From Craspedostauros australis (taxonomy: Eukaryota), in NCBI GenBank assembly GCA_030167865.1, contig JALAGF010000816.1, positions 1 to 42,821 of the forward strand: 42,821 nt of DNA. Reading direction: 5' to 3'. Made by a program: the position numbers and the translations under genes. Under the pieces are notes generated by a model. That model ran no database searches, was not told the origin of the DNA, and saw only the letters and a program-made list of their open reading frames with translations. Below, in pieces: positions 1 through 40,730 of this stretch; within the stretch, counting starts at the first letter, position 1; each line of letters begins with the position of its first letter.

Positions 1-84
1 ATTGACATCACACAGCATCAGCTCTGGTTCCACCCTTCAGCTTATAGCTGGGTAGGGGACCGACACTGAACTGTTGTATCAACA
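1..84 (+). repeat. 5' LTR (3' portion only, ends ...TATCAACA)
   Basis: 84/84 identity with 5114-5197. Identity stops exactly after CAACA, where the flanks diverge (TACTG vs ATGTC). Confidence 0.96.
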
Positions 85-100
85 TACTGTTTGTTTGATT
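85..100 (+). promoter_or_regulatory. Primer-binding-site position: TACTGTTTGTTTGATT, complementary to the element's own LTR (putative self-priming PBS)
   Basis: It abuts the 5' LTR end, has no TGG (anti-CCA) start, and is the exact reverse complement of LTR segment 5079-5094 (AATCAAACAAACAGTA). Confidence 0.8.
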
Positions 101-116
101 CAGCTCTATCACAACG

Positions 117-3100
117 ATGAGCACCGACAAGAAGCCGGCAGCGCCAACGAAGCCGAAGGCAGAAGGCGTCGCCAACAACAACAACAACAAACCCAACCGT
201 GGACATCGCAACCATCCGTTCGTCAAGCCAGCCAAGTTCGAAGGGGTGTGCCCCGAGCTCAAGGGCTATGTCTTTGACTGTGCTGCCGTACGTGCCAAGC
301 AGGTGGACGAATTCACAAAGACCATCGAAGCCATCACCAACTATGCTGGAACACAGTACGGACCGGTTGTGAGCATGGCAGTGGAGAACATGGAAGCACC
401 CTCCATCACAGAGCCTGAGGACTATGCAGAAGGAGCATCTGAGATCGAGAAGGACAAGTGGAAGAGACGCTATGCACTCTATACCACGCGCCTCACCAAC
501 GCCGAGACCGACTATCAGAAGATGTACGCGGTCATCTGGGGACAGTGTTCCGACATCATGCGGACACGTATCCAGGAATCCGACAACTACACCACAACAT
601 CCACCACACGAGACACCGCCGCACTCATCAAGATCATCAAAGGCGTCGTCTTCAACTACCAGACACACGAACAAGGAACAGTGGCCGCATGCATGATCAT
701 GCAGGAGCTTATGGGACTTCGTCAGAAGCACCGACAGACCGTCCAAGACTACTACGAATCGTTTGTCAACCTCGCCGATGTGAACGACACGGTCGAAACC
801 TCCATCACACACGTGGAATGCATCATTAATGCCATCGCCAAGGAGCGTGGCATCGACAACCCAAACACAGCGCAAAAGAAGGTGCTCAAGGCCGACGGCA
901 GACAGCGATTCCTTTCTGTACTCTTCATCCTGGGCTCCGACCGCCGCAGGTTTGGTTCCCTCATCGAGGACCTCCACAATGAACAGGTCAAAGGCAATGA
1001 CCAGTATCCCAAGACACTTGTGGCAGCACTCACCATGCTCAGCCACTGGTCGAAGGACCCAAGGAATGTACCGGGCATCAGCACACCAAAAGACACAGGC
1101 ATGGCGTTTGTGAACGCGAACAACCCAGGTGGAAAAGAGGCATGCACTCGATGTGGCCGCACCAACCACACACTGGATCAATGTCATGCGAAGTATCACA
1201 GTGACGGCACTGTCCTTGTGCACGCTGATGATGGATACAACGATGACGACTTCGTGTTCCTACATGCGCACCTGGATGAACACACAAGCCACACACTCAA
1301 CCAGGCAACCAACATCATCCCAAGGAACTGGATCCTCCTCGACAACCAGTCGACAGTTGATGTCTTCAGCAACGGACGTCTCCTCAAGGACATCCACACC
1401 CTTGAGAACAGTCTCACCATCCACTGCAATGCAGGGACTGCCACCACCAATCAACGCGGCACTCTTCCAGGATACGGGGATGTCTGGTATCACCCAGACG
1501 GGGTCGCCAACATCCTCTCCCTCAGCAAGGTGAAGGGTCGATTCCGTGTCACCTACGACAGCACTGGAACCAACCGCTTCACAGTGCACAAACAAGATGG
1601 GTCCATGCAATCCTTCCAGGAATCCCCAGGTGGTCTTTTCTACCTTGATACCAGCAGCACCAACAACCTCCACGAAACAACCATGGTCAACACAGTAGCT
1701 GATAACCGCAATAGCTTCTCGTCTTTTGACTATTCGCAGGCCAAACTGGCCAGGTCCCTACAACAGCGTATTGGTCGCCCCACGTCGCGTACTTTCATCA
1801 GATATGTTCGCAACGGCATGATCCCTGACTGTCCTATCACCGCCAAGGACATTCGAACTGCTGACCTCATTTTTGGTCCAGACGTGGCTTCCATGAAAGG
1901 GAAAACAGTGAGACACGTGTCTCCAGCCGTACGAGCGGAGATCGCACAGATTCCTGCGAACATCATGCAGCAATATCGCAACGTACAATTGTCAGTCGAC
2001 ATCATGGTTGTCAATGGCATCAAGTTCCTGGTCTCCATCGCCAAGCACATCAAGTTCGGCACAGTCGCAAAACTCGATTCTGCATCAAACACAGTCCTCA
2101 CCAAACAATTCCACAACATCATCCAACTCTACAAGCAGCGAGGGTTCCGTGTCACAATCATCATGGCAGACAACCAATTCGAATCCCTACGTGGCGAACT
2201 GGCCGAGCGAGGTGTTGGAGTGAATGTGACATCGCGGGACGAACACGTACCAGAAGTGGAACGGTACATCCGAACCATCAAGGAACGCGTGCGATCTACG
2301 TATCACGCACTTCCATTCAAACACTACCCGCCCATCCTCATCATCGAGATGGTACATCATGCTGTGTATTGGCTCAACATGTTCCCTCATCAGAACGGGG
2401 TCAGCAAGCGAATGAGCCCATCGGAAATAGTCGTGGGCCGCAAGCTGAATTACAATGCACACTGTCGTCTTGAATTCGGCAGCTATGTGCAAACGCACGA
2501 GCAGCATGACAACACAATGCAGCCACGAACCGTCGGTGCTATCGCAGTCAGGCCGTCAGGAAACGACCAAGGTGGTTATCTCTTCATCAGTCTGGAGACT
2601 GGCATGCGACTACACCGCAGATCGTGGACGGAAGTACCCATGCCCCAATCCGTCATCGACCATGTCCATGGCATGGCGAAACGTGCAAAAACGAATCAAA
2701 CCCTGAAGTTCTCCTATCAGCGCGGTGTGGAGCTGTACCCTGTCCATGATGAAGATGATGATGATGACGACAGTGACAGTGACAGCGATAGTGACAGTGA
2801 ATCCGACAGCGAATCAGAATCAAGCGAGGACACGGACGAAGACAGCCTCGACGACGAGGACGGCGATGATGGGAGCAGCGACAGCGAATCGGAGGCATCC
2901 AACGGAACCGAATCGGATGGCAGCTCAGATGACAGCGACGGCAATGATGATGATGATGGCGACAGCAATAATGGTGTTGAGGATGCAAATGTCCTGCCAC
3001 CGATCATTGCGGACCTGCCACTAATCATTGATGATGCACCACAACTGGCAGACGAGGAGAATATCGAGGCTGGAAATGGACAACCCGATGCGCATCAGCC

Positions 3101-5078
3101 GCCAGAACAGACATCAACACACCCCATGACCACGAGACGGGGACCACGCATTGACTACAGCGAACTGCATCACACCGGTCGTGGAGACACACATGCTACC
3201 ATCACAATCCTATCCGAAGATGCAAACAATGAAACACACAACCACATTGAAGCATGCACGTTCGTCACTGAACAGATGAACTGGAAGCAAGGGCTCCGAC
3301 AATTTCATGAACGCGGCGAAGACGCCATCAGCAAGGAATTGCAGCAGGTCCACGAAATGGAAGGGTTCGAACCCAAACACTGGCACGAGCTCTCTCATGA
3401 TGAACGTTGCAAGGCTCTGCGCTACCTGATGTACCTGAAAGAGAAACGCAACGGCGTCATCAAGGGTCGTGGTTGCGCTGATGGCAGGAAACAACGACTA
3501 TACATGACCAAGGAAGAGACCAGCTCTCCCACTGTGTCTCTCCTTGGGCTCATGCTCACTTGCGTCACCGATGCCCATGAGAACCGTGACGTTGCAACAG
3601 TGGATGTGCCAGGCGCATTTCTGCAAACCAAGTTCGACGACGGAGACATCGTGCACGTGCTGATTGAAGGAAGGATGGCTGAGCTGCTCGCCAAGGTGGC
3701 ACCCGAAGTGTACGAAGAATATGTGCACAAGAAGAGGGGACAATCGGCAATATACGTGAAACTCACGCGCGCGCTGTATGGAACGTTGAAGGCGGCACTA
3801 CAGTGGTGGAAGGATCTCACCGCCACCCTTGTTGCTGACGGCTTCACCATCAATCCGTATGACTGGTGTGTGGCCAACAAGTCAGTGAAAGGGAAACAAT
3901 GCACCATCGTATGGCATGTTGACGATTTGAAAATCTCACATGTGGACCCATCGGTGGTTGACGATGTAATCAAGATGCTGAATGTGGCGTACGGAAAACG
4001 AACTCCGCTCACCGTCAAGTGCGGCAAGCAGCATGACTACCTTGGCATGTTGCTTGACTACACACAACCAGGACATGTGAGAATCGACATGTCAGAATAC
4101 ATCAGTGGTATTCTTGCAGGAGTGCCAGCAAACATGGGAGGACATGCAGTCACGCCTGCAGCCAACCATCTCTTCGACATCAACCACGAAAACCCAAAGG
4201 CACTCGACGAAGACACCAAGGACCTCTTCCACCACATCGTTGCCAAACTCCTCTTCCTGAGCAAGCGCGCAAGACCAGATATCCAAACTGCTGTGTCCTT
4301 CCTCTGTACCAGGGTCAAAAGCCCAGATGAAGACGACTACAAGAAGCTTGCTCGCACGATCAAATACCTACGAGCGACGCAAGACATGACACTCACCCTT
4401 GGTGGATCCAGCCTGGAGGACACACAGTGGTGGGTAGACGGTGCGTTCGGCGTCCACAACGACATGCGGAGCCACACGGGGGCGCACATGTCCACCGGAG
4501 CAGGCGCCATCTACTCCACATCATCCAAGCAAAAGCTCAACACCAAAAGTTCGACAGAAGCGGAGCTTGTCGCTGTCGATGATGTGATGCCACAGGTGCT
4601 GTGGACAAGGTATTTCCTACAGGAACAGGGGATCAAGACCGAGCCATCCACCCTTCACCAAGACAACCAGAGCGCAATGCTGCTGGAAAACAACGGGCGC
4701 AAGTCAAGCGGAAAAAGGACCAGACACATCAGCATGCGATACTTCTTCGTTCACGACCGCATCAGCAGAAATGAGATCAGAGTCAAATACTGCCCTACCG
4801 ATGATATGATCGGCGACTTCTTCACGAAGCCGCTCCAGGGATCCAAATTCAGGGCATTCAGGGACGCCATCCTAAATCGAAACGCATATGATGCCAACAG
4901 GCCAAAGACATACAAGGAAGCTCTATTGGCATCACAGGAGTGTGTTGGTGCACTGGCCAATCGTCAGCATCCGTCCGTCGCACGTAATGACCCAAAGGCG
5001 CAAAACGACGCAGAGCCAGAGAAAAACACAACGAACGCAGAAAACAGCCAAACCAAAACCAACACAGACCACTCATAA
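117..5078 (+). CDS. Copia gag-pol polyprotein (1653 aa)
   Basis: Gag knuckle CTRCGRTNHTLDQC (CX2CX4HX4C, 1143-1184); protease WILLDNQST; integrase core VDIM / ADNQF / HVPEVERYIRTIKER; RT KGRGCADG, DVPGAFL, RALYG, WHVDD; RNaseH VDGAF, STEAE, QDNQSA, GDFFTKPL. No frameshifts or stops. Confidence 0.97.
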   Translation: MSTDKKPAAPTKPKAEGVANNNNNKPNRGHRNHPFVKPAKFEGVCPELKGYVFDCAAVRAKQVDEFTKTIEAITNYAGTQYGPVVSMAVENMEAPSITEPEDYAEGASEIEKDKWKRRYALYTTRLTNAETDYQKMYAVIWGQCSDIMRTRIQESDNYTTTSTTRDTAALIKIIKGVVFNYQTHEQGTVAACMIMQELMGLRQKHRQTVQDYYESFVNLADVNDTVETSITHVECIINAIAKERGIDNPNTAQKKVLKADGRQRFLSVLFILGSDRRRFGSLIEDLHNEQVKGNDQYPKTLVAALTMLSHWSKDPRNVPGISTPKDTGMAFVNANNPGGKEACTRCGRTNHTLDQCHAKYHSDGTVLVHADDGYNDDDFVFLHAHLDEHTSHTLNQATNIIPRNWILLDNQSTVDVFSNGRLLKDIHTLENSLTIHCNAGTATTNQRGTLPGYGDVWYHPDGVANILSLSKVKGRFRVTYDSTGTNRFTVHKQDGSMQSFQESPGGLFYLDTSSTNNLHETTMVNTVADNRNSFSSFDYSQAKLARSLQQRIGRPTSRTFIRYVRNGMIPDCPITAKDIRTADLIFGPDVASMKGKTVRHVSPAVRAEIAQIPANIMQQYRNVQLSVDIMVVNGIKFLVSIAKHIKFGTVAKLDSASNTVLTKQFHNIIQLYKQRGFRVTIIMADNQFESLRGELAERGVGVNVTSRDEHVPEVERYIRTIKERVRSTYHALPFKHYPPILIIEMVHHAVYWLNMFPHQNGVSKRMSPSEIVVGRKLNYNAHCRLEFGSYVQTHEQHDNTMQPRTVGAIAVRPSGNDQGGYLFISLETGMRLHRRSWTEVPMPQSVIDHVHGMAKRAKTNQTLKFSYQRGVELYPVHDEDDDDDDSDSDSDSDSESDSESESSEDTDEDSLDDEDGDDGSSDSESEASNGTESDGSSDDSDGNDDDDGDSNNGVEDANVLPPIIADLPLIIDDAPQLADEENIEAGNGQPDAHQPPEQTSTHPMTTRRGPRIDYSELHHTGRGDTHATITILSEDANNETHNHIEACTFVTEQMNWKQGLRQFHERGEDAISKELQQVHEMEGFEPKHWHELSHDERCKALRYLMYLKEKRNGVIKGRGCADGRKQRLYMTKEETSSPTVSLLGLMLTCVTDAHENRDVATVDVPGAFLQTKFDDGDIVHVLIEGRMAELLAKVAPEVYEEYVHKKRGQSAIYVKLTRALYGTLKAALQWWKDLTATLVADGFTINPYDWCVANKSVKGKQCTIVWHVDDLKISHVDPSVVDDVIKMLNVAYGKRTPLTVKCGKQHDYLGMLLDYTQPGHVRIDMSEYISGILAGVPANMGGHAVTPAANHLFDINHENPKALDEDTKDLFHHIVAKLLFLSKRARPDIQTAVSFLCTRVKSPDEDDYKKLARTIKYLRATQDMTLTLGGSSLEDTQWWVDGAFGVHNDMRSHTGAHMSTGAGAIYSTSSKQKLNTKSSTEAELVAVDDVMPQVLWTRYFLQEQGIKTEPSTLHQDNQSAMLLENNGRKSSGKRTRHISMRYFFVHDRISRNEIRVKYCPTDDMIGDFFTKPLQGSKFRAFRDAILNRNAYDANRPKTYKEALLASQECVGALANRQHPSVARNDPKAQNDAEPEKNTTNAENSQTKTNTDHS
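4933..4942 (+). other. Short polypurine-tract position (CACAGGAGTG) for plus-strand priming
   Basis: Purine-rich AGGAG core immediately 5' of the TGTTGG LTR start. It is short and interrupted. Confidence 0.6.
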
Positions 5079-5197
5079 AATCAAACAAACAGTATCCGAT
5101 CGAATTACACAGCATTGACATCACACAGCATCAGCTCTGGTTCCACCCTTCAGCTTATAGCTGGGTAGGGGACCGACACTGAACTGTTGTATCAACA
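4943..5197 (+). repeat. 3' LTR (255 bp, TGTTG...CAACA)
   Basis: Terminal inverted repeat TGTTG/CAACA, preceded by the PPT. The last 84 bp match the window start. The start position is inferred from PPT plus TG because the matching part of the 5' LTR is outside the window. The next 5 bp (ATGTC, 5198-5202) are the expected TSD. Confidence 0.88.
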
Positions 5198-5270
5198 ATG
5201 TCGACATAATTGCAACACGATCACATCCCAAATCAAGAACGAACTTGGAATAGCAACGACAAACAGCACC

Positions 5271-5861
5271 ATGCCAGCGACAGCACCAGCACCACCAGCG
5301 GACGCCCCATCCGAGAACATGCAGCTCTCCTGGCTCTCCAAGGTCCAATCGCCGCTGCAGGACGCCCTCGCACCGGGCAATTGGGTGGGCAGATTCTTGT
5401 CGTTCAACAGCGACTCCAAGACCTGGCTCTTTCCCAACGCCACGCCGCAGCAGGCGTCCGACGCAATCGTCGCCGTAATCAAGGGTCTCAACTCGGATCA
5501 ACGCGCGGATCTGTGCGTTCCCTGCTGCCAAATCACAAAGGCCACGGCCGACCATGTGCACGTCCGAACGTGGACCAAGAAGGAGTGGCTCGATGTGCTG
5601 GACATCAAGCTATCCAACGGTTCCGTCGTCAACACCGTCGATGGAAGCAAGGACAGCGCACCGCCCGCAATGGCCGTCGCGGAGGCCTCTTTTTACGCAA
5701 CGGGCATGTTGCCCACGTCCATACCGCTGGCGCCCATCTTCAACGTGGCGCTCTTCTTCTTTCCCTTCTATTCGCCAGGCAAGGATGAGATGCTGCAAAC
5801 CCTCCGTCTGCGTGTCCTGGAAGATTTGGTGCGCAAGAACTTGGCCAGCAGTGCCAAATGA
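5271..5861 (+). CDS. Hypothetical protein, possibly DUF1499-like (196 aa)
   Basis: GC3-rich ORF whose first ATG is at 5271 (the ORF-track start at 5187 is a TTG inside the LTR). HVHVRTWTKKEWLDVLDIKL loosely resembles the DUF1499 core, and there is a hydrophobic IPLAPIFNVALFFFPF stretch. Confidence 0.6.
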   Translation: MPATAPAPPADAPSENMQLSWLSKVQSPLQDALAPGNWVGRFLSFNSDSKTWLFPNATPQQASDAIVAVIKGLNSDQRADLCVPCCQITKATADHVHVRTWTKKEWLDVLDIKLSNGSVVNTVDGSKDSAPPAMAVAEASFYATGMLPTSIPLAPIFNVALFFFPFYSPGKDEMLQTLRLRVLEDLVRKNLASSAK

Positions 5862-12622: not shown

Positions 12623-15600
12623 TCATGGCTTGGTTCGGAACGGAGGCTCGTGTTTTGCCAAGGCTATGCCTTCCCCAATCCTCGTTGGGATGGAATCATC
12701 TTCATCGTCCACGCCAGACTTGAAGCATCTCTCCATTTCACTATCATCACTGCTGCTTCCATTGGTGTTGAGGCTCGAACAGTCTGTCTTGCCCTCGTTT
12801 TTTGTGTTCCTGGTGCCCACCGTGACATCGATTCCAGTCACGGCGTACTCCTTGGTGGCTGTGTTACCACTCGTCGCCGTACGATGTGTCTCGCATGTAG
12901 CGGCGGCGACTGGAGGAGAAACCGCATCGTCATTATTTAATTCCGATGATTGTAGCGACGCCGCGACTGATTGCGCTGTGGGTGGCGCATGTGACATTGG
13001 CGTTAACGCCGATCGCGAAGTTGGCTCGGCGGGAATCGCTAAGTTCGAATGCGGCTGCGCGAGCGCACTTCGATCCTGTCCTGCGGTTGGCGGGATAGGT
13101 GGCGCTGCCAAATGACGGGATAGGTTCGGCGGGTTATCGTAAAAGTCCGGTTCGTCAGCAACCGGGGTCCACGAAGGCATGCGGTCTTTCATCTGCTCCT
13201 GGGTCAAACCCCAGCAAAGCGATGCGTCGTCCCTCGTGAAGAGGTTGTGGTAGTGAGCACCTTCGTCCCAGCTCGTTCCGCCCATTTGCGCGAATCCATG
13301 ATCTCGCAGCGCATGTCGGAAGCTTGCGAACTTCATGCGGAAGTATCGCGGCATGATCGTGGACACGAAAGTCGGGCGGTCATGGATCAGAAAGGCTTTG
13401 CCATGATGTGACCATGAGGCGATCAGCCCATGCCCCACGGCGGATGCTTCGTTGAGCATGATTCTCAGGCATGTTAGGAAATCGTGGTTGGCCTTGACTG
13501 CCATCCCGAGCAGCTGATCGCTTGATGTTGCCCATGTCACGCGCGGCAGTTCATCCCGTCGGAGGAAAGGATGGGAGTAGCTGGGCACGACATACTGGCC
13601 AACCCTGATCTTTCCAGGCGATCGGACGAATCCCCACCGTTGCAGCTTCTGGATGAATGAACTCTCCCTGATGGGGTCCGAGAACGTGCCGTAAACTTGA
13701 GTCAAGAATTTGGGAAAGTCATGGATCATGAAAGATTCCCCGGGACTATCCCAGCAAGCGACGTCCCTGAGGTCGTTGCGTTCTGCGTATCGAAGCATCT
13801 CGTGCAGCCTGACGACGAAGTGAGTGTGGTCTTTGGCAAGCTCAGCGACCTGTGCATTCGCAGGGTTGGTTGTGGATGAATCAAGTCGTAGAGTAGTTGT
13901 TGCATGGAATGGCATACGGGGTGGAGTACAAAGTGTGGTCATACAGGTGGAGTTGCAGGAGAACATGATGATTGGAGGGTAGTGGGTCAGGAACGATATC
14001 GATGGGCAATGCACATACTGGTAGGTTGGTGATACATCGATCCACAACAAGCACCTCCGCTCCACTCCACTTCACTCCAGCACTGCGCTGTTTCACTCTG
14101 CTCTACTCTTCTCTGCACTGTGTCGCACACAACGCACAACCTATAACACACAACTTACCGTCCTGCCATGAATCCTCATCTGCTTGCAACGATGGCGTTT
14201 GGCACGCGAGAACAATCGATGGATGAAGGTATCCGCGTGAGGACCGCTCTTGAAGTAAACAAAGCCCCATCGTGACAGAGCATCGACGAAGTCCTCCCAT
14301 GTTGCTATCTGCAGTTGCGGCGGGAATGCCTTGCCGATCACGTTCGCAACGAAACGCTGCTTGTCGTGAACGCGGAATGAACTTCCATCTGGTTCCCACG
14401 ATACGATGGGATCTGGATTGTTGGCCGCCTCCGTGAAAGGATCCGTATGTTGCACCTTCACGGAGTACTCGTCCAGGAGATCGTGCAGCCGCCAAGGGAA
14501 GAGGAGCGACCATGAGCTCTGAAGAGGCTTGTACTTAGCATGGATGATGAAGCCATGCTTCGGTTCGGACCCGACCACAGGCTGCGGCAGGGACGGGGAC
14601 CTTCTCTGCCGTTTCGATGCCGGTGGTTCCGCGGGCGCTTCTGCAGCTGCGGATCCGCCGACCGTCGGCACATCGCGAGTGCCGCTTTGAGGGAAGGACA
14701 CGATCTGAGACGGCATTCGTCGTTTCTGTGTGCGTTCCACAGCACCTTCCGAAACACCCTGTTGATGTTTCTCAGTTTGTGGCGGCGGACCTTGAGCGGG
14801 CGCCTTGATGTCTTGGTTCGCTTTTGCAAAGATGGATGAAGGAACAGCACTTGGTGTGATTGGCTGCGATGTGGAAGGCGTGTTGGTAGAAGAGTGCGAA
14901 GTAGAAGACTGGTTCTTTGAATCTGGTGGAATTGGCGATGATCGCGTCACCTGCGGGGAAGGCTGCTCCTGTGCATTCGAAGCGAGGAATGACGTGAGCC
15001 GCGGGTATTGCGAGAGTATGTTGCGAAGGTGACCGTCCAGATGTGCCGCGAGGGGACTTGACGATGCATTCCTTTGTTGTTGGAGTTGGTCGTTCCGACC
15101 TCCCGCTTGCTGTTGCTGGCACGCGGACTCAGAGGCGCGGGCGCTGGTCGTGCTTGGCATCGCTGGCTGTTCCTGTTGTTGTTGCTGCTGTTCCAGCAGC
15201 TTGGTATGGATATTGCATAGCAGCGTGGCGACGGTATTCTCCTCCTGATTCCGTGCCCGTGAAAACGATTGCTGTGTTGGTGTGGCAGCGCAATGGGGCA
15301 TCACAAAGAGATGTCGACGCATCGCAGCGGACGGTCGCAGTGGACGAGATGGGGGAGTACAATACGTGAGACGAGAAGAGGTGATTTCATTGCCCAACAG
15401 AGAAGCACAGAGTGTAGAGCGGAGCAACATATCATGAGACACTGTTCCACACAGCATCGCAGGATGCGGTTCAGACGTCGGCCACCGAAGTGAGCGATGC
15501 CAAAACATGAGAGCGCACTTACCGCAACTGCGGATCCCGGAGCTGGTTCGGGATGTGAAGTAGAAGATTGTTGGTCGGGTATCGCGGGTGTCGATGCCCT

Positions 15601-29483: not shown

Positions 29484-31089
29484 ATGAAGCTCTCCGCCCT
29501 CCTTTTGACCGCCCTCGTGGCCCCATCGGCCGCCTTCGCCCCATCCTCGCAGATTGGCTCCCCAGTGCAGAAGAGCATGGACAGCGCCTCCGCCCTCGCT
29601 GGAACCACAAAGCAGCCACCGGAGATCCCACCTCCACGCAAGGTCTCCTACGGAGAGGAATCCAGAGCCTACCGCCGCACCGTCTACACCCACGATGACT
29701 GGGTCAAGCACCGATCCCCGGACCGCTTCGCCCGCAACCTCTCCACCATCGTCACATCCGGAGTCTACAAGAACCTGGGTCGCGAGGTCTTGGCCACCAC
29801 CGCCGTCGCCACCTTCGTCTGCCTCTTCAACCTCGCTGTTAGTGGATACGTTGACTTCTCCGGCGCCGCCCACGAGGGTATCCTTCAGGGAGTCCTTCCG
29901 CTCCTCACCCTTCCTTTGACCGGATTCACCCTCTCCTCTCCATCTCTCGGACTTCTCCTCGGTGAGTCTCTCATCATGATTGTGACAGGATGCGATGCAT
30001 TCATGGTGTCGTCCATCAAGGCAGTGCTCTGCAACTGCCTGTTGGTGGAGGGTTTCAACTTGAGGCTGCACATGATGTAGCAATCACATGTTGACGCATT
30101 TCCACAGGGATTCTGTATCTCACTTTTCCAATGCCGCTGTCTCATTATTTGCATCTCCACACGACCATGCACATTGCATTATGCATGTTCACTCCTATCC
30201 ACTCACGTCCACTCACGTCGACTCATGCACAACATCATTTGCAAATGGTACAATCGCAGTCTTCCGGACCAACACCGCCTACCAGCGCTGGGACGAAGCC
30301 CGTAAGAACTGGGGAATGAACATCAACCACACCCGTGATCTGGTGCGTCTGGGAAATGCCTACTACGACAGCTCCGAGGTCGGCTCGGAACGCCGCCGCG
30401 AGGACCTCGACCGTCTCTCCAAGTGCACATGGGCCTTCGTTCGCTCCATGAAGCGCCACCTGTCGCCAGAGTGGGAGGACGAGGAGTTCTTCCGCAAGGA
30501 GCTCTACGAACGCCTTCCGGAGGCACAGGCCAACGCCATCATCAACGCCGCCCACAGACCAAACCGCGCCCTCTTCGATCTCAGTCTCGCCATCGAGAAC
30601 ATGCCCATGCACTTCATCCGTAAGAACGAGGTCCACCGCGCCGTCACCATCTTCGAGGACAACCTCGGTTCCTCCGAGCGTCTCCTCACATCGCCCGTCC
30701 CGCTCTTCTACTCCCGACACACGGCGCGATTCCTCGGATTCTGGCTGCTGCTCCTTCCATTCGCCCTCTTCGATCCATTTGGCAACACCTGGAACCACCT
30801 CGGCATGATCCCCGCCACTGCCGTCATCTCCGTCTTCCTCTTCGGTATCGAGGAGCTCGCCACGCAGATGGAGGAGCCATTCACCATCCTCCCCATGCAG
30901 GCGTTCTGCGACAAGATCGGCAACTGGTGCAACGAGATCGTCTCGTGGGAGGCCGGCGACAACGGCATGCCGGTCTACAAGAGCAGCGAAAAGGACATGC
31001 AGCTCGATATGGGCACTGCCGCCGCCACCAGCGCCGATTCCGGTGCCAACGGATCCAAGGGACGTCTTCGATCCGTTCTTTTCAACTAA
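29484..31089 (+). CDS. Plastid-targeted bestrophin-like anion channel (435 aa, 2 exons)
   Basis: Signal peptide plus ASAFAP-type motif (MKLSALLLTALVAPSAA/FAP). Exons 29484-29961 and 30260-31089 (GTGAGT...CGCAG, phase 1) restore LGLLLVFRTNTAYQRWDEARKNWG. Also ERLLTSPVPLFYSRHTARFL and GIEELATQMEEPF. Confidence 0.93.
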
Positions 31090-35221: not shown

Positions 35222-38200
35222 TTAGACGTTGTCATCGTCGCCACCCAACCTCGTCTCATGTGTTTGCATCGACGCTGTCACCTTCTCCATCATGGCCTTC
35301 ACGATCTCTTCTCCCTTCCTCTCGAATTCGTTGCGATTCTCAAGAGCATAGTTCAAGTACTCGTCGGAGGACACACCGAAGACGCCGCAATCCTTCAGCT
35401 TCTTGGCCAACGGGATGACGTAGTTGTCGAAGAACCACAGCTCGCCGCGGTACCAGCCAATGGATGGGTCCTTGTCGGATCTGCCGGCCTTGTAGGCTTC
35501 GTACATCTCGCGGAACAACCGTTCGTTCCAGCGACAGTACACGTGCCAATGCTGCATGGTGTGCGACACATCGGAGGCCTGAATGACGTGCTCCAGGACG
35601 ATGGTCGCCTTGAGGTTGAGCATCTCATTCTTGTTGGCTGGGCTGGCGCGGTAGCTGTCAACCGAATATCCGTAGGGATCGCTGGCGCAGCTAAATTCCG
35701 TGCTCTCCTCGATCTGCTCAATGTCGTACCGGTCCGCTCCAAACACCTTCTTCCAGCGTTGCTTCCGTCGCCGGGATAGGTCCTTGTCGAAGATGTCAGT
35801 GGCGATGACGCAGTTAACGATGAGCTGGCGGAACCGGCTTCGCTCACCTGGCGTGGAGAAGATGCAAACGCGCAGATTTTCGTAGCATGGGGCCATCAGC
35901 AAGTCCCAGGCGATGTCGACGGAGCGTTGCTCGGCCAGGCTCTTGTTCTGGTACTTTGTGGCGATGCTGGGTTCCTCGGTCGCGAGCTGGTTGTTGGGGA
36001 CACCGGTGTGGCCGGCATCATGGATGAGCGCCGAGAAGACGACAGCGAAGCGAGTCAATGGGTCCGAGCTGATTCCGTATGTGAAGTCGTGCAAGTCGCT
36101 TGGCTTATCGCCAGTGAAATCGTCTGGTCGGGCAATGCGCTTGAGAAGCTTGGTTGCCGACAAGACGACGTGGCTTGCGTGTTCCATGTTGTGGAACGGA
36201 TTAGGTTGGTACGTCTCTGCCAGCTGCGAGATGTAATCGTAGAGCTCGGCACGCACGGCCGGGCTCAGATCGCGGCGGAACTTGCGGATGGATGTCGTGC
36301 TCGTGGCTTCCTGGAATGCTGGAAGCTGGACGACGTCCTTGACTTCGTCGAACACGGTTGAACCAGGCTGGCCGGCCGCCCATGCTGGCATGGAGTTGTT
36401 TATGCCCGTCAGGCTGGAACGTCGGCGTCTGCTGTGACGTGATTTGGAGAGCGGCCTCTGAGAATTCTCGGTGTCATCCTTGACCTCGCTCAATGCATTC
36501 TCCATCTCCTGTCTCTTCGTCTCGGCAGCTGTATAGGACAGCATGTCCCTGTGAGCCTCGACGTCGCGCAGCAGCGCGAGCATGGTCTCCACATTCCATC
36601 GGATGTACCGTTCGTTGGGGTCATCCTTGAGCGACGGTTGTCCCTGTCCATTGATTCCCGACACACCTTCTTCCTGGATGGTACGCCGCCGATCGGATCC
36701 ACCGCTTTGATTGTGCTGCGCTTGATCACCCGTGTACAACCAAAACGTCTCCATCTCGCCCTTCCCCTTGACCACGACAGCATCAGCACGCTTGGCAAGC
36801 CAGTGCGACTTGCCCTGCTTCTCCAGCAACGTCGCGGTATCCTTGGATAGCTGGATGTGCCCCGGTTTGCCGGTTGTTTCCATGCGACTTGCCACGTTCT
36901 GCGCATTCCATCAAGACCGATGGAAAGAAATGTGACGCAATGATACGAATGTAAGTGCAAGTGAAAGTGTGTGAGGAGAAGTGGCATAGTCATGAGAGTC
37001 CAATGGTCATAGTACGCAGACCAATAGCAACGTCATCATCGAGCATTTTGCGGGAGCAGGGAAGAAAGTGAGGTGATTGGGAACGAAACCACACCGAGAG
37101 AGAGACGATAGCTTGCCACAGATAGCATTCAAGCACTGGTAGAGTAGAGTAAAGGAGAGCACCCCGTTTCATTCCCAGCATGCTGCAACGATAGTATTCT
37201 CGCATCATATAAGCACGCACCATGGTGTCACCAAACAACTGAAACCGCGTCTTGTCGCCTCGTAGAACTCCGGCCGTGATGGGCCCAGAGTGAATGCCCA
37301 CACGCATCTGCAGATCGCCGGTGCCTGGCCCCAGGGTCGTCTCCAAGATGCGTACGAGCTCTGCGACTCGCAGTAAGGCATGATGCGCAAATCGTGCCAG
37401 CACGACGGGATGGTCAGGACGTGGATCGGGAAGTCCGGTGGCTGCAACGTAAGAATCGCCGACGGTCTCGACCTTGAAGACGCCGAAGCGTCGCGCGACC
37501 TGATCGATGCCACCGTAGAGGGTCTCGAGCAGGAGGAAGACCTGGGATGGTTCGCGCTCGGAGCTCCATGCTGTGAACCCCGAGATATCGCCGAACATGA
37601 TGCTGCAATTGTGGAAGAGATCCGCGATGGGTTCGCTCTTGTTGGCGATGGTTGAAGAGGCGCCGAGGTTCTGGGTAGATGCGCCCATGAGGTTGCGCTT
37701 GTGCATCGAGGCCAAGCCACCGGGAGCGGAGACTGGTCCGGAAGACCCGGTGGACGTGCGCTGACCATTCTCCTTCATCAAGAATCCCTTGAGCCGCCGC
37801 TTGCTGCTCATCTCCATCTGCTCCTGTTCCTGCATCTTGGCCTCCGCGTTGGCGAGCAACCGATCTCGCACCTGCTGTGGATAGTGCGCGTGAAGGAGAA
37901 GGTTCGCCTCTGTAGCTTCGACGAGGATGCGCTTCTGCCGCTTCTCGAGCAGACAGTCGTACACGACGAAGATGCCGGCAGCAAAGAGGAACATGGCACC
38001 GATGCCGAACTCCAACGCGATGGGTCGGAATGTCAGGTACGACGATCTGAGCGCCTTGGTGGGATGGACCTCAATCCGCGTGGAGCAGGCGGGCGCTGGA
38101 GCGGAAGTCTGGTGTTGGCTTTCATTCCCGTTATCTTTCTCGTTGTGATCGCCGGTGTGTGACGGCGGATAATACGTCTCCACATGCATCTGCAGCAGGT

Positions 38201-40504
38201 CGTTCCATTGCTGGAACGTGGAGTTGACATTGAAGTTGGCATCCCTGACTTCCCCCGACAAATCGCCGAATCCCAGAAACTCGACCTCCGGACCAACGAC
38301 CTCGTAGGTGTAAAACTTGGAGGACGTTGGGTTGTCGCAGGCGCTCTCTACGACCACTATGAGCGGCTCATTGATGTTGTTGGGCAGGGCGTTCTGAATG
38401 AAGGCTTCCAGACCCACCTCCAACAGGAGCACACCCACCACCACAACTTCGTCGCCACTGTCCGCATCATCGCCATTGTCATTGTCATTGCCATTGTCGT
38501 TGTCAGTCCCGTCCAACCCGTACAACTCCGGAAACTTGAGCTCCTTCCTCGTCCTCGTGACGGGATAGTAGATGGGCAGGACGGGCGCAACGTACTGCTC
38601 GTAAATGGAGGCGTTGGTGCTGGCAAAGAGCGTCTGCGGGATGCTGGATTTGGCAGACGTCTGCTGCGGCATGAGCGTCGATGCCGTGAATGGCTGCATG
38701 GCGCGCTGCTGGTTCGGTTCCGACGCCATGTTGTAGAACAAGGATTGCAAGGTGCTGTTGGACACGGGCGCGATCTGAAAGACCGGCGCAAAGTGAGACG
38801 ACACGATGTTTTCTGGAACCAGCGTGCCGGTCGTCGGGTCCACGCGCACGATGCCTTCCTCCAAGCGATCCGCCATGGTCTTTGTGCTGCCGCGGTATGT
38901 GACATGCGCCGTGGCACCTGCCTTCTGCAAGAGAGCGCTCCTGGGTTCGTACGTATCCACAAAGGTGTTGGTGTTGAGGAGGTTGGTCCAGTATTCCCGC
39001 GCGTAGGACTCCCATTCGATTCGAAGTCCCGCATCGGTACTGGGCAGGAAGGGAAGGAAGGAGACCGTCGAGACGGAACCCAAACGTCGCGCGCCTGACG
39101 CCAGACGATCAAAGTTTGAGAATGCCGCAAATGGCCAGGGCTCTCTGTTGGCCTTGAGGGTTGTGTCGTTGTTGTCATGCAGGATGACGAAGTCCCCCAA
39201 GCCCATGACCTGGCATTGCTGGATGAGCTCGTCTGCCACGTTGAGGGTCTGCGAGAGCTGGTCGAGGAAGGCGGTGGCGACAGTATTGCCAAACTCGGAA
39301 AAGTCTGTCTTGAAGGATTTCTCCTCGTGGTCCAGCGCGATGATGTAGGTGATGTTGGCCACGAGGGCGGCGACCGTGAGCAGGGAGGTGATGACGAGAC
39401 AGCGGATGACGGAGATGGTGCGCGTTTGCTCCTTGAGATGGCGGTTGTCGGAGTTCTCGGATTGGGCATCGTTGTGGGTCTTCTTGTGGTGGTTCATGGA
39501 CATGTGTCTCCGCTGGCGTACGCTGTTGTTAATGGAGGAACCGCCGGTGTTCCTGTGCTGTTTGGGGCTGTGATTGGTCATGTCTCCATCGAGGCTGCTT
39601 TTGCGATTGTTGAGGGAGCTGATCTGACGCTGTTCCTGTTTCTGCTGTTTCTGCTGCCTTTTGAGTGGCTGCTGTGAAGGTAGTGGAGGAGGATTGGCGC
39701 TGTAGGAGGTGTTGGCACTTGCTTGATTGGCCATGGTGGTGCCATCAGCAGTTGCGCTGGGTGCATGATTTCTGATTGGTGGCGATGGCGAGGTTGATGG
39801 TGGGTGAGGAACAGTGCGTGGCATGGCCCTTTGCGAGTCGTCTATGATGTCATTGTGCATGTTGTTGTGCACATCATTGCGCATGCTTTGTTCGCGTGCG
39901 TTGGCATTGGCATTGGCATTGGCAATGTTGCGATTGGGGTGGTTGATGGGTCCCTTGGCGATGGAGGAGTTGTGGATGGTGGGATCGTTTTCATCCTGAT
40001 CGTAAGCAGCATCGTCATGGGCATGAGCATGAGCAGCATCAAACTCGTCCAAGTCATAGTCATCCTCATCGGTGGCATACATGAGATCGTTGCGTCTGCG
40101 TCCCTTGGTCTGCGTCTGGCTCTGTATCGATTCGTAATCCGATCCCTCGGTGTCTATCCCGAAGCTGTCTTGATCCGATTCATCGGTGCTGGCATCCAGT
40201 TCGATGGGTGGAAGGGAGAACGATCCGGTGGATGGGGAGGTGGGCGATACGGACATGGCAAACTTGTTGGCAGTGTGATCCGGAGTGTTCGTGAGGTTGG
40301 AGCTGACGTTGGTGTTGGTGTTGGCGTTGGAGGTGAATGGTCCCGATTGGCTGGATGGCATGGCCTCCGTTTCAGCCAGAGAGCTCAGATGAATTCTTGA
40401 GTGCGAGTGCGAGTGCGAAACCGAGTCTGAGTAGGCGAGGGAGTGACCGCTGGAACCGGCAGCTTTCATGAACGAAGGGGATTGTTCAGGGTATGCCTGT
40501 TGCT

Positions 40505-40547
<43 letters not shown>

Positions 40548-40730
40548 ATGGCTGTGAGCTGGATTGTTACGTGAAGAACGACGATGACCACGTGATGTGC
40601 GAAGCGGCTCCATGGGCTTGAGGTGATTGGTCCCGTCCATGTCATCGTCCTCGTCCAGATGCACTCCAGGGGCCTGAGGGTTTGCGGGATGCGCGTTCTG
40701 CTTCGTCTCGGAGTTCATGTCAGGCGCCAT
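35222..40730 (-). CDS. Membrane-anchored class III nucleotide (guanylate-type) cyclase - phosphodiesterase fusion (~1728 aa, 2 exons)
   Basis: Exons 40730-37221 and 36898-35222, with a phase-0 GTGCGT...GCGCAG intron restoring RFQLFGDTMNVASRME. Cyclase motifs MFGDISGFT, KVETVGDSY, MRVGIHSGP. PDE motifs PFHNMEH, IHDAGHTGVPN, ATDI, ASDVSH, FFDNYVIPL. Two TM segments flank a ~430-aa putative sensory domain. Confidence 0.93.
40499..40547 (-). repeat. CAG/CAA trinucleotide tract encoding polyQ (~16 Q) in the cyclase-PDE N-terminus
   Basis: (TGC/TGT)n run on the + strand, translating as HQQQQQQQQQQQQQQQQA. Confidence 0.9.

Follow-up and report, generated by a model that had tools for sequence, protein, structure and literature searches.

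A diatom Ty1/Copia retrotransposon with a primer-binding site complementary to its own long terminal repeat: a candidate for Tf1-like self-priming

How does a long terminal repeat (LTR) retrotransposon begin reverse transcription when the site at which a transfer RNA (tRNA) would be expected to anneal is instead the complement of its own LTR? The question is raised by an element at the start of contig JALAGF010000816.1 of Craspedostauros australis (assembly GCA_030167865.1), of which the whole stretch of 42,821 nt (the window) was analysed. The element encodes a single polyprotein with a Copia-type reverse transcriptase (RT), and an earlier note on this DNA proposed that its primer-binding site (PBS) pairs with a segment of its LTR, so that the element would prime its own minus strand. 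We find that the complementarity is exact, lies where a PBS belongs, and is conserved with covariation across a large clade of related elements. A PBS that has been replaced by the complement of the element's own LTR implies self-priming, and we consider self-priming of the Tf1 type to be the best reading of the window's element, with a probability of about 0.78.

Positions 84-100 (arm 2) are the perfect reverse complement of positions 5079-5095 (arm 1), with 100% identity over 17 nt, which confirms the match of 16 nt (17 with A84:T5095) that had been claimed. When the 16-mer was searched through the 42.8-kb window with up to 2 mismatches, the only matches were 85-100 on the minus strand and 5079-5094 on the plus strand, and the mean number of matches in 100 shuffles was 0.00. 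Bases 1-84 of the window belong to the 5' LTR, being a direct repeat, 100% identical to 5114-5197, and both LTR copies end ...TATCAACA. Base 84 is therefore the last position of the LTR, and the repeat arm sits flush against this end. The leader between 85 and 116 contains no TGG, as the earlier note had observed, and no Rfam family was detected within positions 1-5400. Arm 2 is non-palindromic, its partner being ~100 nt upstream in the LTR. In a composed 5' RNA, the helix between the arms has a base-pair probability of ~1 and a duplex energy of -20.3 kcal/mol, and in the predicted fold it closes a branched structure formed by the unique 5' (U5) part of the LTR.

Relatives of the element were used to place the LTR borders. 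A protein search identified 796 relatives among 8000 scored candidates, the 120 listed having 28-63% identity. An alignment of 32 relatives was used to scan metagenome contigs, of which 599 stretches matched and 522 encoded a relative, and the related loci considered here (L001-L080) are the best 80 of these 522. Viral contigs scanned with the polyprotein gave no match. Just past the C-terminus of pol, the relatives carry the nucleotide motif CACAGGAGTG followed directly by TGTTGG, and its 12-nt core, AGGAGTGTGTTG, was found with at most 1 mismatch in 68 of the 80 loci. In the window, CACAGGAGTG followed by TGTTG occupies 4933-4947. Locus L052 contains two 223-nt LTRs flanked by a 5-bp target duplication, ATTAC, and its 3' LTR starts exactly at the T of TGTTGG, with cacaggagtg immediately before it. 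The same is seen in L080 (target duplication GTTCG), and in both loci the polypurine motif adjoins the first base of the LTR repeat. Because this conserved motif, combining the polypurine tract (PPT) with TGTTG, could be calibrated on the borders of L052, we placed the 3' LTR at 4943-5197. The window's element has TG...CA LTR ends, within a 5-bp terminal inverted repeat on the LTR (TGTTGG...CAACA). Arm 1 is thus preceded by 136 nt of LTR and starts 119 nt before the LTR ends, a mid-LTR position at which the boundary between the unique 3' (U3) and repeated (R) parts would be expected. In L052, the corresponding offset of arm 1 from the LTR start is 109 nt, and arm 2 runs from the last LTR base. 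The 119-nt distance between primer and LTR end, as given in the earlier note, agrees with the relatives, in which U3 varies from 55 to 394 nt and the loop between the arms stays at ~90-120 nt. A subgroup (L005, L007, L011, L014, L024, L056 and L071) has a shorter loop of 45-53 nt, with an R-U5 of only ~70 nt.

To gauge how prevalent the arrangement is, we scanned 427,391 nt, made up of the 80 loci and the window's first 5.4 kb, for perfect inverted repeats whose arms measure 12 nt or more and whose loop spans 30-400 nt. In most loci this returned one repeat of 14-17 nt per element, at a constant place. A count from the Gag side used zones set without reference to the repeat, each comprising the 650 nt that precede a tblastn match to the Gag N-terminus, and 33 of the 38 zones contained a perfect repeat of 14 nt or longer whose loop measured 45-150 nt. 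In the other 403,901 nt there were no more than 30 repeats of 12 nt or longer, and several of these are true sites that have no Gag match. Two of the five zones scored as lacking the repeat (L044 and L048) have it just beyond the scanned zone. The truncated 5' ends of L075 and L001 showed no repeat at up to 2 mismatches in 14 nt. Counted from the LTR side, the repeat follows 30 of the 53 LTR starts that have enough downstream sequence, and 22 of the 23 repeat-less starts have no Gag match within 1.5 kb downstream, being 3' LTRs that run into flanking DNA, or contig ends. Two of these 22 carry the repeat elsewhere, L040 beyond the 520-nt stretch that was scanned and L010 across the contig ends. 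The repeat therefore tracks the LTR starts that lead into Gag, and arm 2 belongs to the junction between LTR and internal region, as a PBS should. In 36 of 37 elements, counted manually, the first base of arm 2 is either the final base of the conserved ..AACA LTR end or the one that follows it. In L080, an older copy with differing LTRs, the pairing has one mismatch. The Gag-side and LTR-side counts give the unbiased prevalence; the figures from sets of 37 elements (arm position, cross-matching and initiator) and 30 elements (covariation) speak to covariation and not to prevalence.

The position of the repeat is shared among the elements that carry it, and its sequence differs from one to another. 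The 37 elements have 34 distinct arm 14-mers, which differ on average at 7.8 of the 14 nt. The longest complement between PBS and LTR of the same element is 14-17 nt in 37/37 cases, as against a mean of 5.8 nt and a maximum of 13 nt in 1326 pairs drawn across elements. The motif in the window is A/C-rich and somewhat repetitive, and it might be asked if the complementarity is a chance match in low-complexity sequence. Zero matches are expected from shuffles, the arrangement recurs in 33/38 relatives, and complement lengths within elements exceed those between elements, so that this explanation is refuted for practical purposes.

To follow the pairing itself, the regions from arm 1 to arm 2 of 30 elements were aligned with MAFFT. 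RNAalifold predicted exactly the 14-bp helix between the arms, with double compensatory changes in 14/14 pairs. The covariation score of the alignment was 0.890 as against 0.218. Cells of the alignment that can pair amounted to 94.0%, compared with 55.9 ± 2.0% in shuffles, none of 500 of which reached the observed value, and sliding the partner by 1-3 columns reduced pairing to 38.5-51.9% of cells. The earlier note had suggested checking related elements for joint variation of PBS and LTR segment, and the expectation was borne out both by the recurrence of the arrangement and by the compensatory changes at every pair. G:U accounted for only 2/416 cells of the helix. In tRNA-primed elements, the PBS is copied from the tRNA. 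By the same logic, a PBS templated from the primer in each cycle would be Watson-Crick perfect, and this would explain the near-absence of G:U.

Conserved pairing could have another cause, namely that the helix is a structural element of the genomic RNA, acting in packaging, dimerisation, translation control or the shaping of U5, while something else serves as primer. Covariation by itself is evidence of selection for pairing and of nothing more, a cleavage product has yet to be observed, and a conserved hairpin occupies the PBS position in the fungal GalEa Copia elements, with a role given as unknown in the passage describing it (PMC5445492). Against this, selection for structure only would tolerate wobble pairs, arm 2 sits exactly at the PBS position, flush with the LTR end in all but one of the elements counted, there is no other candidate PBS, and the outer end of the helix meets an initiator-like motif, as described below. 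We therefore regard a purely structural helix as improbable. Directly after arm 1, most relatives have a motif resembling CTGGTTTAC, and one resembling GTTGCCTTATAGACAC lies in the middle of U5 (alignment columns ~25-34 and 99-118, respectively). Considered as a conserved U5 hairpin, these motifs gave no consensus helix with RNAalifold; they may serve in recognition, either for the cut or during strand transfer.

The diversity of the arms also bears on conventional priming, in which a host tRNA or tRNA fragment would anneal to 85-100 and the match to the LTR would be incidental. Priming by half-tRNAs is known in Copia elements (PMC6317226), and our search for tRNA genes, which found none, was confined to the window. 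The absence of a tRNA gene from the window and of TGG from the leader, the A/T-rich arms, which do not resemble tRNA, and above all the 34 distinct PBSs among 37 elements, each matching its own LTR and not those of the others, make priming by a host tRNA very unlikely.

A primer formed by the RNA 5' end would place a transcription start at the helix's outer edge. A diatom initiator-like motif, TCAH+1W, in which +1 follows TCA, was proposed by Kadono et al. (2015; PMC4686930). At the 5' edge of arm 1, TCA abuts the arm in 24/37 elements and NCA in 5, and in 5 more TCA overlaps it, with TC outside the arm and A within; the background frequency of TCAHW in the loci is 0.007 per position. The edge of the helix and the initiator-like motif thus coincide in most relatives, as expected for a primer that is the RNA 5' end. 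At the other end of the primer, the first PBS base past the LTR is T in 34/37 elements, so that the primer would end in A and extension would start with the complement of the terminal LTR base, in line with the earlier note. In the window, the 3' end of the primer is probably A5094.

RNA evidence was sought in public data. Poly(A) or poly(T) ends were present in 0/80 loci, and none was usable as a transcript with mapped ends. A single public run was listed as sharing exact sequence with the region (0.06 of the sampled words), its type being guessed as RNA. Two of its contigs match exactly (4943-5108 and 5096-5400+), three further pieces are short and less similar, and the internal part of the element has no exact cover. 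The first contig spans exactly 4943-5108, in agreement with the LTR start deduced from the relatives. The second, 1434 nt long, begins at 5096, the base after arm 1, and its start would fit a transcription start a little further upstream just as well as a location of arm 1 in U3; contig ends can neither place RNA ends nor show expression. This contig continues across the LTR end into a flanking gene (first ATG of the long open reading frame (ORF) at 5272), and should the run consist of RNA, the neighbouring gene's transcript may take its 5' end from the 3' LTR.

The contig that begins at 5096 leads to the possibility that transcription starts downstream of arm 1, for example at ~5096. Arm 1 would then lie in U3, near the 3' end of the RNA only, and the pairing would bring the two ends of the genome together, whether in cis or from one co-packaged RNA to another, and would serve cyclisation or priming by a 3' fragment. 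The other exact contig ends at 5108, and in the window's element TCA does not abut arm 1, both of which speak for such a start. The contigs do not show RNA ends, however, and come from a run of guessed type. The (T/N)CA motif touches or overlaps arm 1 at its 5' edge, and not at its 3' edge, in 34/37 elements, and under the standard LTR scheme the first strand transfer requires R, which would be missing if the primer were cut from the 3' end. Transcription from a point beyond arm 1 appears still less probable than a structural role for the helix.

The reading that we prefer, self-priming of the Tf1 type, would proceed as follows. Transcription would begin with the first base of arm 1 in the 5' LTR or no more than a few bases away from it, and the 5' end of the RNA would fold back across R-U5 onto the PBS. 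Where the duplex ends on its inner side, after ...CAGUA, the element's RNase H would cut the RNA, and the freed 3'-OH would prime the minus strand, beginning with the complement of the terminal LTR base, A. Plus-strand strong-stop synthesis would recopy the primer into DNA, with the result that the PBS of the new copy would be a perfect Watson-Crick copy of the primer. We infer the RNase H cut and the copy-back, the latter by analogy with the standard replication scheme. Of the mechanism put forward in the earlier note, the core, a PBS replaced by the complement of the LTR, is strongly supported by its prevalence in the clade and its covariation, while the transcription start and the cleavage stay proposals.

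Several points weigh against this reading. The 5' LTR copy of arm 1 lies beyond the window and was deduced from the 3' LTR; in one relative, L002, the equivalent arm segment is present in both LTR copies. In three elements that do have a Gag match, L035, L063 and the first copy in L008, no repeat was found even with 2 mismatches allowed in 14 nt. The sets of 37 and 30 elements were selected for having the repeat, and most arms are A/T-rich, which somewhat raises chance complementarity, as reflected in the 56% pairing of the shuffles. The transcription start is one that we infer from a motif and a model. In the window's element, CTCA lies 3 nt upstream of arm 1 instead of abutting it, and its RNA may have a short unpaired 5' overhang, or may start at 5079 or elsewhere. 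To these are added the scope of the tRNA search and the contig that starts downstream of arm 1, both given above.

Features of the element and its surroundings are collected in Table 1.

Table 1. Positions of the retrotransposon's features and of neighbouring genes in the window.
Feature	Position	Strand	Remarks
5' LTR, 3' part (U5 end, ...TATCAACA)	1..84	+	100% identity to 5114-5197; clipped by the window start
Arm 2, primer-binding site (85-100 and last LTR base A84)	84..100	+	Complementary to 5079-5095
Short leader from PBS to polyprotein ATG	101..116	+	ATG at 117
Polyprotein, single intact ORF, 1653 aa	117..5078	+	Gag zinc knuckle, probable integrase block, Copia-type RT
Polypurine-tract-like motif CACAGGAGTG, immediately 5' of LTR	4933..4942	+	Conserved in relatives
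3' LTR, 255 nt, TGTTGG...CAACA	4943..5197	+	Start placed by the PPT/TGTTG motif; end by the direct repeat
CTCA, initiator-like motif, 3 nt upstream of arm 1	5072..5075	+	Published diatom initiator-like TCAH+1W
Arm 1, putative self-primer and putative genomic-RNA 5' end (in its 5' LTR copy)	5079..5095	+	Complementary to arm 2
Rest of R plus U5, 102 nt	5096..5197	+	Branched fold closed by the arm1:arm2 helix
ATGTC, candidate target-site duplication, first 5 bases of 3' flank	5198..5202	+	5' partner outside the window
Two HSF-type DNA-binding proteins, side by side	12623-15508		
Bestrophin	30088-31089		
Guanylate/adenylate cyclase and phosphodiesterase, adjacent pair	35222-40730		

The element is an intact LTR retrotransposon of the Ty1/Copia type in a diatom, and is probably young. 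Its polyprotein matched the Pfam family RVT_2 with an E-value of 1.3e-10 (41.7 bits, cut-off 31.6), and the Gag zinc knuckle (zf-CCHC_5) scored 22.1 bits, under the cut-off of 27. No Pfam family for protease, integrase or RNase H was found in the polyprotein at E-values up to 5. An alignment of the relatives revealed a strongly conserved block at residues ~540-870, between the Gag knuckle and the RT, which is probably the integrase. The protease, integrase and RNase H regions are strongly conserved among the relatives, yet the enzymes of this clade are poorly covered by current profiles. Between the integrase-like block and the RT, at ~2740-3000, is an acidic, low-complexity stretch rich in Asp, Ser and Glu, encoded by degenerate GAT/GAC/AGC repeats. 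The LTR start at 4943 falls within the ORF, and the last 45 codons of the polyprotein are located in the U3 of the 3' LTR. The ORF traverses the polypurine-like motif and continues for 136 nt into the 3' LTR, such that U3 up to the putative primer is all coding, and its TAA stop occupies 5076-5078, the complementary segment beginning on the very next base. In the relatives, too, the ORF often terminates within the LTR. The conserved nucleotide motif CACAGGAGTGTGTTG corresponds to a 'DHRSVL' patch in the protein consensus of the relatives, and the window uses a different frame.

Many related contigs of ~5.1-6.2 kb have identical terminal overlaps (e.g., 127, 123 or 120 nt), among them L019, L020, L023, L031, L039, L044, L058, L066 and L073. 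They consist of one LTR plus the internal region, circularly permuted, and could reflect collapsed assembly of two LTRs, tandem arrays or circles with one LTR. True tandem arrangements of element, LTR and element were found in L005, L008 and L036. L080 (1-12492) is a circular-looking contig of 12.5 kb with a terminal overlap of 153 nt, in which GTTCG follows the 3' LTR and occurs again ~6.9 kb on, before the 5' LTR, indicating that element and flank close into a ring or that the unit is tandemly repeated. LTR borders were drawn from L052, L080, L002 and the conserved motifs, and not from the repeats of circular-looking or tandem contigs.

The neighbouring genes identify the host. The bestrophin gene has its best named relatives in Pseudo-nitzschia (~75-83% identity among the named matches), Seminavis and Chaetoceros, which makes the host a diatom; the window's HSF and cyclase/phosphodiesterase genes are likewise typical of diatoms. 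Copia elements abound in diatom genomes, and some of them respond to stress.

A broader proposal follows from the conservation of the arrangement, namely that a large and widespread clade of Ty1/Copia elements in diatoms (stramenopiles) gave up tRNA priming and came to use a self-primer of 13-16 nt that begins at an initiator-defined start, with a PBS rewritten in each cycle, and that this arose independently of Tf1/sushi and possibly of the plant TAR lineage. We find the grounds for and against this proposal about evenly balanced. If it is true, rewriting of the PBS explains why the complementarity is free of wobble, each family has a private pair of primer and PBS, and the elements are independent of host tRNA pools and invisible to defence by PBS-directed tRNA fragments. 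A rule of self-priming valid for the clade would allow exact annotation of LTR ends, PBS and likely transcription start, and would explain why PBS finders based on tRNA would fail on these elements. The 34 naturally co-varying pairs of primer and PBS are also a resource for studying what the RNase H cut requires.

Among known systems, the closest precedents are Tf1 and Tf2 of Schizosaccharomyces pombe, from the Tf1/sushi group of Ty3/gypsy, for which self-priming has been shown by experiment; the diatom element is known from sequence alone. As in Tf1, the PBS is the complement of the RNA 5' end of the element itself, which lies within the LTR (a putative 5' end in the diatom), and the RNA would fold back over R-U5 and be cut by RNase H at the end of the duplex (PMC7175516, PMC4600332). 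In the diatom clade, as in the Tf1 group, complementarity is kept while the sequences vary. The duplex measures 11 nt in Tf1 compared with 14-17 nt in the diatom clade, and U3 of the diatom element is largely inside the polyprotein ORF. Membership of the Tf1/sushi group itself is ruled out, as the RT is of the Copia type (RVT_2) and the probable integrase block stands before the RT and not after RT/RNase H.

The GalEa elements of fungi, also Copia, resemble the diatom element in lacking a tRNA-type PBS and in having a conserved structure right after the 5' LTR (PMC5445492). Their Conserved Hairpin Site, however, is a local palindrome for which the authors, in the section describing it, found no complement in the LTR (PMC5445492), and a hairpin site of this type is ruled out here, since arm 2 pairs with the LTR segment ~100 nt upstream. 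Among diatom elements, the window's element is probably one of the CoDi elements, which measure 5182-8062 bp with LTRs of 153-844 bp (Maumus et al., 2009; PMC2806351) and share with it a diatom host, a Copia-type RT, a compact size (~5.2 kb in the window) and short TG...CA LTRs. The main text of that paper does not discuss PBS or priming and uses 'PBS' only for a buffer (PMC2806351). Our literature search, which did not extend to supplementary files that possibly hold PBS tables, found no report of self-priming for diatom elements.

A parallel within the superfamily is the plant Ty1/copia lineage TAR, for which Neumann et al. (2019; PMC6317226) predict self-priming, citing Capy (2005) for Houba and Osr-1. 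The earlier note's view that self-priming had not been described among Copia elements was therefore overstated. TAR elements (including Houba and Osr-1) share with the diatom element the superfamily, the lack of a tRNA-type PBS and a prediction made in silico from complementarity between PBS and LTR (PMC6317226); they differ in their hosts, land plants as opposed to a diatom. The diatom Copia elements thus probably add one more lineage to the LTR retrotransposons that prime themselves, and do not represent a new principle. As a third lineage beside Tf1/sushi in Gypsy and TAR in plant Copia, they would bear on the question of whether hairpin priming is ancestral or has evolved repeatedly.

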